Source: Patescibacteria group bacterium
GTDB taxonomy: Bacteria > Patescibacteriota > Minisyncoccia > Phycocordibacterales > XYD1-FULL-46-19
Reading direction: 5' to 3'
DNA length: 35,170 nucleotides
Assembly (NCBI GenBank): GCA_030917625.1
Contig: JAUPUJ010000001.1
Coordinates: forward strand, 1 to 35,170
Both the position numbers and the translations under genes were made by a program. The notes beneath the pieces were generated by a model. The model searched no databases. It was not told where the DNA came from and worked only from the letters and a program-made list of their open reading frames with translations. Each line of letters opens with the position of its first letter. Position 1 is the stretch's first letter. This document shows, piece after piece, positions 10,146 through 13,270 of this stretch.

Positions 10146-10790
10146 TTAAAATTCTTGTTCGTCTCCACTAACCATCGGAATAAAATTAATACCATATTGT
10201 TTCAAAACATTTTCTGGAACCTTATGCGCTCCCCCTATTTTATCTATCTGTAACATTCCATCATGAACCGGAAAAACTTTTTTGGGTTTTAGTTTTATTG
10301 CATACCGAATCGCATCACCAACTTTACACCATGGACCAGCTACGGGAAGAGCTAAAACTTCAATTTTTTTCTTAGGATCACAATAAGAATCACCAGGATA
10401 AAATAATTTATTATCAATAAAATAACCCGTATTTTGAACTTGGCCCACATTCTCAAATACTTCTTCATGATTACCATCAAAAGCCTCTATTAAAACTCCG
10501 AGGACTTCCTCTTTGTCCAACCCCTCTAATATTTCATATTTTATATTTAAACCATCAATAATTTTACCAACAGCTGTATTTGTAAAAATTCTTACTTGGG
10601 GATTATTTTTAATAATTTCTTTTAAAGACTCCACATGAATGTGATCATTATGTTCATGGGTAATCAAAACAATGTCTATATTTTTTATATTTTTATTATA
10701 TTCCGTAGTAAAAGAACCAGGATCTGTAAGAATAGTAATTTTTTCTAATTTTATAATCAAGCAACAATGGCCAATCTTTTTTATTTGCAT
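10146..10790 (-). CDS. MBL-fold metallo-hydrolase
   Basis: 214 aa with the HxHxDH motif (THEHNDHIH) plus downstream His/Asp ligands typical of the metallo-beta-lactamase fold. Confidence 0.8.
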   Translation of the reverse strand: MQIKKIGHCCLIIKLEKITILTDPGSFTTEYNKNIKNIDIVLITHEHNDHIHVESLKEIIKNNPQVRIFTNTAVGKIIDGLNIKYEILEGLDKEEVLGVLIEAFDGNHEEVFENVGQVQNTGYFIDNKLFYPGDSYCDPKKKIEVLALPVAGPWCKVGDAIRYAIKLKPKKVFPVHDGMLQIDKIGGAHKVPENVLKQYGINFIPMVSGDEQEF

Positions 10791-10834
10791 AAATAGTTAA
10801 AATTCAGTTCGCTAAATTAGCAAACGCTAATATG

Positions 10835-11100
10835 AGCCAATGATCGGAATCGAACCGATGACCTCTCCCTTCGTTTACACCTCTATTTCACTTAAAGCTT
10901 ATAAGAGGACTAGACTGTATCTTACGCATATTGGCAAAAACCAACTTAGCGCCCCTTGTCAGTCGTTCGGGCGAGAATGTCGCCACGGTCTTATCCTAAT
11001 TCTAGGACTTTAACCGTTATTCGGGATTCACTATTTCGTTTTCAAAATAATGGGCTATTCAATAACCATGGGAGTGCTCTACCGACTGAGCTACATTGGC
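10835..11100 (-). tRNA. tRNA-Thr(GGU) gene interrupted by a 193-nt intron between positions 36 and 37
   Basis: Minus strand exon 1 (11100-11065): GCCAATG-TA-GCTC-AGTCGGTA-GAGC-A-CTCCC-ATGGT. Exon 2 (10871-10835): AA-GGGAG-AGGTC-ATCGG-TTCGATT-CCGAT-CATTGGC-T. Joined, they give a canonical 73-nt cloverleaf with anticodon loop AUGGUAA. The D and anticodon arms resemble the usual bacterial tRNA-Thr(GGU) as I recall it. CCA is not encoded. Confidence 0.85.
10872..11064 (-). ncRNA. group I intron (minimal, IC3-like tRNA-type), no internal ORF
   Basis: Hand fold on the minus strand; i = intron position.
- P1: exon GGU + UAU / AUA-GCC, with a U.G wobble at the splice site.
- P2: CAUUAUUU/AAAUAGUG (i13-36).
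- P3: UCCC/GGGG.
- P4: ACGGU/ACCGU with A-rich J4/5 UAAAG and J5/4 UAAG.
- P5: UCCUA-GAAU-UAGGA.
- P6: GGCGA-CAUUC-UCGCC.
- P7: GACUG (10960-10964) / CAGUC (10913-10917).
- J8/7 + P7': AAGAUACAGUC, versus the group I S-element consensus AAGAUAUAGUC.
- P8: CGC..UUGGU-UUUU-GCCAA..GCG.
- P9: CCUCU/AGAGG.
- The last nucleotide is G (10872). Confidence 0.75.
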
Positions 11101-11120
11101 TACAAACTTAATTTGTATCA

Positions 11121-11738
11121 CTAATACAGTATACTAATATCTTCTACTGTCTTTTTCAAGGCATCATTAATCTCGTTTCTCAATTTAACATTATTGAAAT
11201 ACACAGTCACAACACCTTCTATATTTCTTACTCTATAAGTACCCCTTTTTTTAGATGGAGTAACTATGACTTTATAAAACTGATCCTTATTGACACAAAG
11301 GCACTTAGTCCAGTAAGCCAAACTTTTATTCTTATCCATAGAACTAAAGATTTGTAATCCAAATTTTAAATCTTTCTTATCAACCCCATAAACATGATTT
11401 AGAAATATTATAAATGTTTTTATTAACAAAGGATCTGAATTACCCAATCTAACAGAATATTTGTTTGCTTTTGTGCCTTCGCCCCAATATAAGCCGATAC
11501 CCATACCAAATAGAAAAAAGTCAGTTTTATCCACTAACTTTTTAACCTGAAAAGGATCTCCTTTTGGATTCAATTTTCTATACACTGCTTCTGATATAGA
11601 ACGTTTTGGTATTTTATATTTAATGAGCCAGTAATTTATTTTACTAACAGGCATATTTAATTGAGAAGCAATCTCTGATGCAGATTTTCCTTCTTTTAGA
11701 TAAATCTTATTTAATAACTGCTTACTAAGAATAACCAT
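11121..11738 (-). CDS. free-standing LAGLIDADG-family homing endonuclease/maturase-like protein with N-terminal HTH
   Basis: 205 aa. N-terminal helix-turn-helix (GKSASEIASQLNMPVSKINYWLIKY). A single LAGLIDADG-like motif (FLFGMGIGLYWGEGTK) is followed by a ~110-aa core of the size of one LAGLIDADG domain. The stop is 20 nt upstream of the tRNA-Thr 5' end on the same strand. Confidence 0.7.
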   Translation of the reverse strand: MVILSKQLLNKIYLKEGKSASEIASQLNMPVSKINYWLIKYKIPKRSISEAVYRKLNPKGDPFQVKKLVDKTDFFLFGMGIGLYWGEGTKANKYSVRLGNSDPLLIKTFIIFLNHVYGVDKKDLKFGLQIFSSMDKNKSLAYWTKCLCVNKDQFYKVIVTPSKKRGTYRVRNIEGVVTVYFNNVKLRNEINDALKKTVEDISILY

Positions 11739-13199: not shown

Positions 13200-13270
13200 A
13201 GCGGGATAGAGGAGAGGTACCTCGGGAGGCTCATAACCTCCAGACGCCGGTTCGATTCCGGCTCCCGCAA
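13200..13270 (+). tRNA. tRNA with CAU anticodon, probable initiator tRNA-fMet
   Basis: AGCGGGA-TA-GAGG-AGAGGTA-CCTC-G-GGAGG-CTCATAA-CCTCC-AGAC-GCCGG-TTCGATT-CCGGC-TCCCGCA-A. Position 1:72 is unpaired (A x A) and 11:24 is A:U, both bacterial initiator hallmarks. Only 2 of the 3 canonical G-C pairs at the base of the anticodon stem are present. Confidence 0.7.

Follow-up and report, generated by a model that had tools for sequence, protein, structure and literature searches.

Is the threonine transfer RNA (tRNA) gene with anticodon GGU, which lies in two pieces on the minus strand of contig JAUPUJ010000001.1 (assembly GCA_030917625.1, a Patescibacteria group bacterium), interrupted by a working group I intron; does the interrupting sequence belong to a larger family; and what is to be made of the conserved open reading frame (ORF) immediately upstream of it? 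The whole stretch of DNA that was analyzed, positions 1 to 35,170 of that contig, is hereafter called the window, and has a G+C content of 38%. An earlier reading made from the letters alone (the "sequence-only reading") had proposed a compact group I ribozyme in a reduced genome, and the assignment of the host to Patescibacteria (the candidate phyla radiation, CPR) agrees with the latter point; the release factor 2 (RF2) of the window comes closest to proteins named Candidatus Paceibacterota (78%) and shares about 65% identity with those of Taylor-, Vogel- and Zambryskibacteria, which places the host in the class Paceibacteria. As to the ribozyme, the comparative evidence gathered here makes it probable (at roughly 0.87, in our estimate) that the insertion is a functional group I intron, housed in the sole tRNA-Thr(GGU) gene seen in the window, and that it represents a compact intron family (about 170-266 nucleotides (nt)) of Patescibacteria with at least one further member in a cultured Bacteroidota.

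The two halves of the tRNA gene occupy positions 11100-11065 and 10871-10835 of the minus strand (the strand on which all intron and exon features described below lie) and are separated by 193 nt. The 5' exon (11065-11100) comprises tRNA nt 1-36 and ends with the anticodon GGU, the 3' exon (10835-10871) comprises nt 37-73, with CCA not encoded, and the sequence between them (10872-11064) runs from U1 to the terminal (omega) G193. Once ligated, the halves are recognized by ARAGORN as tRNA-Thr(GGT), which bears out the 73-nt cloverleaf of the sequence-only reading, whereas in the window itself ARAGORN run without its intron mode misses the split gene altogether; in intron mode it reports a single split tRNA, c[10834,11100], with a 193-nt insert, misnamed tRNA-Pro(ggg) because the program puts the intron boundary one base off. 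The exact boundaries can be taken from the closest relative found, GCA_943349055.1 (locus L212), whose RF2 shares 96% amino acid (aa) identity and whose prfB shares 91% DNA identity with the window, and which carries at the syntenic position an uninterrupted tRNA-Thr(GGT) identical to the window exons at 36/36 positions (the entire 5' exon) and at 44/44 positions across the 3' exon comparison. This empty site with identical exons means that the insert is exactly 11064-10872, i.e., 193 nt following nt 36, as had been supposed, and it supplies a precise presence/absence pair against an uninterrupted allele; the intron was either gained or lost after the genomes of the window and of L212 diverged. 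The same sequence was assembled independently in two samples and is therefore no assembly error. The expected ligated exon junction consists of CCCAUGGU followed directly by AAGGGAG. As the codons ACU and ACC make up 74% of the threonine codons in the long ORFs of the window, and as ARAGORN finds no second tRNA-Thr within these 35 kb, the host very likely needs this gene, and the intron must consequently come out.

Homologues of the insertion are plentiful. The first ones were found beside homologues of the 205-aa ORF that lies upstream of the tRNA in the window, and a pattern scan covering one genome per species (GACTRACAAGGG-N(8-38)-AAGATAYAGTC) revealed a compact intron family with at least 120 homologous loci. 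Among the matches listed in that scan, 113 loci were resolved, and their precursors constitute the alignment (A1) from which the copy counts given below derive. In 112 of the 113, as established by a brute-force search for the boundaries combined with ARAGORN on the ligated exons, the host is called as tRNA-Thr(GGT) and the insert follows nt 36; the names that ARAGORN in intron mode gives to the split genes of the window and of loci L012-L211 (Arg(gcg), His(gtg), Pro(ggg) and others) were considered and, for the labels gcg, gtg and ggg, dismissed as boundary artefacts on the strength of these ligated exons. The hosts are nearly all Patescibacteria (Pacei-, Saccharibacteria, Kaiser-, Yanofsky-, Komeili-, Uhr- and Peregrinibacteria, among others). 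Resolved lengths span 171-266 nt with a median near 192 (an apparent length of 168 nt at locus L097 is taken as 180), and a second set of introns, reached via the ORF, spans 170-216 nt, so that the 193 nt of the window, which the sequence-only reading had thought new, turn out to be close to the family median.

A covariance model (R1) built from 26 relatives (alignment A3), with the window left out, matches the window exactly once, at 10872-11067 of the minus strand, over its full length and with 165.5 bits (E-value 1.4e-57), which is in the middle of the range of the other family members (138-171 bits), and gives no match in the intronless loci L212, L214 and L008. Every family-invariant base is kept in the window copy. 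The cultured member of the family was found in Niastella populi CCTCC AB 208238 (Bacteroidota), on the 300-kb contig NZ_LWBP01000002.1, as a 181-nt intron in tRNA-Thr(GGU) (L056:5196-5450), which reaches 171 bits with R1 and has no homologue of the 205-aa ORF beside it. The intron of the window and that of a Nomurabacteria metagenome-assembled genome (locus L131) are 82% similar, as compared with 72% for the exons of both tRNAs. Introns that are more alike than their exons, taken together with the intronless L212 with its identical exons, suggest either horizontal movement or a very strong constraint on the intron.

The helices of this family are under purifying selection. Unguided RNAalifold on the 113 precursors yields the tRNA arms plus P1, P2 and P4-P9, the latter in canonical order, with compensatory changes in 42 of 64 pairs. 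When a named structure is used for the counting, in which P3 is entered as a pseudoknot and a P9.0 of two base pairs (bp) is added, 96.9% of the cells are paired, as opposed to 77.9% in partner shuffles (0/500 as high) and 35-42% when the partners are slid by 1-3 columns, and 44 of its pairs have changed on both sides. In the window copy taken by itself, the 266-nt precursor has a minimum free energy (MFE) of -87.1 kcal/mol (z = -4.18; none of 200 shuffles folds as well), and the MFE fold consists of the four tRNA arms, then P1, P2, P4/P5, P6, a P7 (GACUG/CAGUC) enclosing P8, and P9. The MFE fold and, for the helices that vary, the family covariation agree with the group I core that the sequence-only reading had folded by hand, with the amendments that P3 is just 3 bp long and that the 2-bp P9.0 and the AAAA loop of P2 had been overlooked.

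Going through the intron from its 5' end (paired fractions are anchored, alignment-free counts across the family, with the shuffle mean given for comparison), the P1 hairpin (11053-11067) pairs exon nucleotides G34, G35 and U36 and intron nucleotides U1, A2 and U3 with intron AUAGCC, in which GCC is the internal guide and the U36.G10 wobble marks the 5' splice site. This wobble, already pointed out by the sequence-only reading, is a U.G pair in every one of the 113 copies; intron nt 1 and the base immediately 5' of GCC vary together (GU, AU, UA, GC), and the P1 extension is paired in 96.5% of cases (72.7% when shuffled). P2 (11029-11052) has 10 bp, nine of which show compensatory changes (84.5% paired against 55.1%), and is capped in the window by AAAA (L2, 11042-11039). 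The 5' strand of P3, CCC (11023-11025), pairs with GGG at 10955-10953, and the only changes seen in the family turn C into U and leave a G.U pair in place; a P3 longer than 3 bp was ruled out, as the next base 3' of GGG pairs inside P8. The P4-P5 segment (10985-11017), obtained with RNAalifold, contains P4 (ACGGU/ACCGU), A-rich J4/5 (UAAAG) and J5/4 (UAAG), and P5 (UCCUA/UAGGA); P4 is invariant in the family, while P5 has compensatory changes at 4/4 counted pairs (94.7% paired against 68.3%). P6 (GGCGA/UCGCC, 10970-10984) has them at 4/5 pairs (GC, AU, CG; 94.3% against 73.9%). The following stretch (10953-10969) comprises J6/7 (CGAAC), the 5' strand of P7 (GACUG), J7/3 (ACAA) and the 3' strand of P3 (GGG), and is identical across all 113 copies, partly because this very block served as the search pattern; P7 itself, GACUG/CAGUC as read originally, is returned by the MFE fold and RNAalifold alike.

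P8 (10924-10952) contains an 11-nt tetraloop-receptor motif (CUAAG...UAUG), and its four closing pairs, each of which occurs as 3-6 pair types, are paired in 97.3% of cases (50.6% when shuffled). J8/7 (AAGAUA) and the 3' strand of P7 (CAGUC), the latter completing the guanosine-binding helix, follow at 10913-10923. The last segment (10872-10910) holds P9.0 (GU 10910-10909 with AC 10874-10873), P9 (CCUCU/AGAGG, with compensatory changes at 5/5 pairs) and the terminal G at 10872, a G that, in line with the sequence-only reading, ends 113/113 copies. P9.0, by which group I introns define their 3' splice site, covaries as well: 98.2% of its cells are paired (222/226, against 76.6% in shuffles), mainly as GC/GC, AU/AU, GU/AC and AC/GU. 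A further regularity connects the loop of P2 to P8, for an L2 of GAAA goes with a receptor of the CUAAG...UAUG type in P8, whereas an L2 of GUAA, GCAA, GCGA or GUGA goes with a plain P8 helix in 58/59 cases. This is tetraloop-receptor covariation and, judging from the aligned copies, it marks a tertiary contact under selection, comparable to the docking of the L2 tetraloop on P8 in the Azoarcus intron.

Several observations, nevertheless, weigh against the insertion being a working group I intron. The general Rfam model of such introns (RF00028, Intron_gpI), consultation of which had been recommended as a check, has no match on the window at its gathering score, nor any on 10750-11180 at an E-value of up to 10, and its full-length matches on three relatives reach only 17.8-22.8 bits against a gathering score of 50. 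P3, at 3 bp (CCC/GGG), is unusually short. At least 90% of the relatives have a G opening L2, as befits a GNRA tetraloop, and only 2 of the 113 copies have an A there, which makes the AAAA loop the sole departure of the window from positions conserved in at least 90% of the copies; the canonical 11-nt receptor in its P8 is kept despite this loop, which could weaken one tertiary contact. Finally, P3, P4 and P7 are invariant save for P3, where C has become U six times with G.U pairing preserved, so these helices, and with them the P3/P7 pseudoknot, are neither backed nor contradicted by covariation (P5, P6, P8 and P9 do covary), and P7 and the 3' strand of P3 were part of the search pattern. With regard to Rfam, what is confidently aligned in the matches of the relatives is P1, P2 and the J8/7-P7' segment AAGAUAcAGUCUAA, and in relative L017 the string AAGAUACAGUC, which the window shares, aligns to the consensus AAGAUAUAGUC with high posterior probability, in support of the group I-like J8/7-P7' claimed at the outset. 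Compared with the Tetrahymena-type J8/7-P7 of that consensus, the window has the same AAGAUA(C/U)AGUC and the GACU in P7, with the U-to-C difference matched by A-to-G on the other strand; it differs in having no peripheral domains and an overall score far below the threshold. There are no bacterial sequences among the 12 seed sequences of RF00028 (Williams 2020, bioRxiv 10.1101/2020.01.27.920355); the failure of this model reflects a weakness of the general model and is no refutation.

If the intron is indeed active, the precursor would be transcribed, probably jointly with the ORF 20 nt upstream, and the intron would fold into a compact P1-P9 core with a P3/P7 pseudoknot, braced by the docking of L2 on the P8 receptor. 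The U36.G wobble formed in P1 with the guide GCC would mark the 5' splice site for attack by a free guanosine bound in P7, and P9.0 would then bring the terminal G193 into the same pocket, whereupon the exons would be joined to give the 73-nt tRNA-Thr(GGU). Both this two-step, guanosine-initiated chemistry and its presumed independence from protein helpers are inferred.

The ORF in question (11121-11738, minus strand), a possible partner of the intron, encodes a 205-aa protein with the motif GLYWGEGTK, an N-terminal helix-turn-helix (HTH) and an unassigned alpha/beta domain, the latter being well predicted (predicted local distance difference test (pLDDT) score 88.6); relatives that share about 50-60% identity with it number more than 1,100. 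Its surroundings were inspected in 73 metagenomic relatives whose DNA extends far enough downstream. In 72 of these it lies directly upstream of tRNA-Thr(GGU), the tRNA being split in 51 (removal of the intron confirmed tRNA-Thr(GGU) for 47) and intact in 21, and in the remaining one it sits between tRNA-Thr(GGU) and tRNA-Thr(CGU); conversely, it is found directly upstream in 40 of the 101 intron-bearing genome loci whose upstream DNA is long enough. The notion of a tie between ORF and intron was accordingly rejected: occurring next to both intact and split tRNA-Thr(GGU), the ORF goes with the 5' flank of the tRNA gene instead. That its product might be a LAGLIDADG nuclease, an idea prompted by a motif seen by eye, found no confirmation in Pfam, NCBIfam, PDB sequence profiles or Foldseek searches of PDB and BFVD. 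Pfam LAGLIDADG_3 matches 7/52 members of the ORF family with a best E-value of 0.018, the PDB profile search with the ORF gave nothing relevant, Foldseek against PDB gave nothing significant (best E-value 5.5e-3, template modelling (TM) score 0.2, IspF), and the weak top Foldseek matches in BFVD (E-values 3e-3 to 4e-2, TM scores 0.24-0.31) include some phage LAGLIDADG or DNA endonucleases.

How much, then, could the intron owe to such a protein, and are there other ways of accounting for the insertion? It might be group I in origin and yet no longer self-splicing, having come to need a maturase-like helper, be it the protein encoded upstream or some factor of the host. A much reduced core with a 3-bp P3 and absent peripheral domains, the AAAA L2 of the window copy, and a conserved ORF only 20 nt away that adjoins the intron at the 40/101 genome loci and 51/73 ORF loci just mentioned would all be in keeping with this. 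About 60% of the intron-bearing loci with enough upstream DNA, Niastella populi included, do without an adjoining ORF, however, about 30% of the ORF copies adjoin an intronless tRNA-Thr(GGU), and matches to RNA-binding or maturase families were not detected for the ORF; as ORF and intron are found apart, neither depends on the other in cis, and we regard a helper-dependent intron as unlikely.

It is considerably less likely still that the window shows a decaying intron in a dead tRNA gene, with the ACY codons being read by another gene or by the wobble of another tRNA-Thr. Only 35 kb of the genome are in view, L2 is off the family consensus and Rfam is silent, all of which such decay would explain, but a decaying copy would hardly be expected to score in the middle of the family range, to keep all of the family-invariant bases and exons that match the unbroken gene of the sister genome base for base, to have been assembled with an identical sequence from two samples, or to serve the main threonine codons of its host (ACU and ACC). 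That the insertion is not group I at all, being instead some other structured insertion, such as a small mobile element or an archaeal-type bulge-helix-bulge intron that a protein endonuclease cuts, draws on nothing but the Rfam threshold not having been reached and is barely credible: the 5' splice site falls within a continuous P1 helix and not a 3-nt bulge, the insert sits at 36/37 and not at the canonical 37/38, and the U.G, the terminal G, P9.0, J8/7 and the sequence of P7 are group I features. In the predicted folds, the bulge-helix-bulge arrangement (3-nt bulges flanking a 4-bp helix) is absent, with the 5' site located in P1 and the 3' site single-stranded after P9.

Returning to the reading of the insertion as a working group I intron, the question of its mobility is raised by the fact that the window has both the ORF and the intron and its closest relative, L212, has neither. 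A gene with a metallo-beta-lactamase fold (10146-10790, minus strand), located between the tRNA and prfB, is also absent from L212, where prfB comes directly after the tRNA, so that the window has three extra pieces, i.e., the ORF, the intron and this gene. The anticodon-stem pair C30-G40 (A1 columns 30/420; loci L132-L211), moreover, is present in 45/47 and in 110/112 intron-bearing genes, as compared with just 7/21 ORF-linked intronless ones (Fisher p = 9e-8). The association is treated here as a lead, because the statistic ignores relatedness and the nearest ORF neighbours share their intron state in 57/68 cases; the bias may mark a homing site, meet a demand of splicing or simply follow lineage.

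One can imagine, tentatively and with more doubt than conviction, that the intron and the 205-aa ORF form a two-part mobile unit, in which the ORF product would act as a free-standing homing endonuclease cutting the uninterrupted tRNA-Thr(GGU) at or near the intron site, and in which the carrier genome would be shielded by the intron or by a variant anticodon stem. Such a unit would fit the ORF being fixed beside one particular tRNA, the joint absence of ORF and intron from L212, and the C30-G40 bias. "Collaborative homing" of an intron with a free-standing homing endonuclease has been described for cyanophage psbA, and resembles the situation in the window in that the intron is ORF-less and a conserved protein gene lies directly beside the interrupted gene; it differs in that the ORF of the window could be assigned to no nuclease family, and in that ORF and intron also occur separately.

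To our knowledge, the Azoarcus intron is the usual benchmark for the smallest self-splicing example. That intron, found in tRNA-Ile(CAU), is 205 nt long (PMC13168695). Classed as IC3, the intron of Azoarcus sp. BH72 occupies the same anticodon-loop position ("5Ug" in the Williams numbering) as that of the window, and shares with the window family its compactness, the lack of a P5abc extension and a P2 with a GNRA loop (AAAA in the window copy). Their core sequences differ, P3 is shorter in the window, the window intron is shorter by 12 nt (with the family going down to about 170 nt), and self-splicing has been demonstrated for the Azoarcus intron, whereas for that of the window it is predicted. 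The classical IC3 introns of tRNA-Leu, -fMet, -Arg and -Ile, similarly compact and devoid of a P5 extension, have a P7 AGAGACUA, a J8/7-P7' AAGGGAUAGUCC and a longer P3, none of which the window shares; by eye, in the 13 Williams seed sequences of the first part of that alignment, both the J6/7-P7-J7/3-P3' block and J8/7 differ from those of the window, whose family has an L2 loop type covarying with the P8 receptor. The architecture as predicted resembles that of the small IC3 tRNA introns (no P5abc, GNRA loops with receptors), and no subgroup is assigned, because the core differs from those of the Leu, fMet, Arg and Ile introns and of the Williams Thr seed intron.

The tRNA-Thr host, which the sequence-only reading had likewise held to be new, is not new, and neither is the site. 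Williams 2020 (bioRxiv 10.1101/2020.01.27.920355) brought the settings in which group I introns interrupt bacterial tRNAs from 4 up to 21, put the frequency of interrupted tRNA genes in "metagenomic assemblies from unnamed phyla" at 0.49 per genome, and includes in its seed alignment "Rba53.Thr.5Ug", a tRNA-Thr intron at the same site. Thr.5Ug and the intron of the window have in common the tRNA-Thr host, the insertion after the third anticodon base, U at -1, G at omega and a GCC guide pairing with GGU, whereas the core of the Thr.5Ug seed is the classical one of tRNA introns, GUAGAGACCA ... AAGGGAUGGUCC, and its P3 measures 6 bp, and the family of the window has CGAACGACUGACAAGGG ... AAGAUACAGUC with a 3-bp P3. 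The strings CGAACGACUGACAAGGG and AAGAUACAGUC are absent from the Williams 2020 seed alignment and model file. Lui et al. 2021 (PMC8172020) remark in passing that group I introns in some CPR tRNAs hamper detection. Apart from this remark and the Williams preprint, literature searches for a tRNA-Thr intron in CPR brought nothing to light, and a published description of this family or of its small size was not found. While host and site have a precedent and the size is typical of the family, the interest lies in how compact that family is, in its invisibility to standard annotation and in the unexplained tRNA-linked ORF.

Other split tRNA genes were encountered in the CPR loci that were fetched, with inserts of about 185-240 nt. 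Those in tRNA-Tyr (L210:1135-1419; L026, L074, L120), tRNA-Ser (L019, L082) and tRNA-Asp (L052) are matched weakly but significantly by the tRNA-Thr intron model (13-33 bits, E-values 4e-10 to 5e-3), and the tRNA-Tyr insert contains ACGGU/ACCGU, AGACUA and AAGAUAUAGUC, which points to a wider set of related compact tRNA introns; the genes for tRNA-Met (L063, L097), tRNA-Leu(CAA) (L049) and tRNA-Ser (L121) that ARAGORN splits have no match to that model. Within the window, one of the two tRNA-Met(CAT) genes (13200-13270, plus strand) is oriented oppositely to the tRNA-Met and tRNA-Asp genes next to it and has its first acceptor pair mismatched in the Rfam alignment, such a mismatch being typical of the bacterial initiator tRNA.

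In practical terms, standard annotation misses or misnames these genes, as ARAGORN gives either nothing or, in intron mode, Pro, Arg or His, and Rfam remains silent, so that genomes of this group seem to lack tRNA-Thr(GGU) or to have the wrong isoacceptors, even though this tRNA reads about three quarters of the threonine codons in the ORFs of the window; the family model together with the simple core pattern would repair the annotation. For ribozyme work, the family offers natural group I cores of about 170-200 nt with rich comparative data, and the Niastella populi copy, its host being cultured, is a practical one for direct splicing tests. If these introns do self-splice, the members of 170-193 nt would be smaller than the 205-nt intron of Azoarcus, and the tight link between an HTH gene and the 5' flank of a single tRNA may turn out to be a new homing system.

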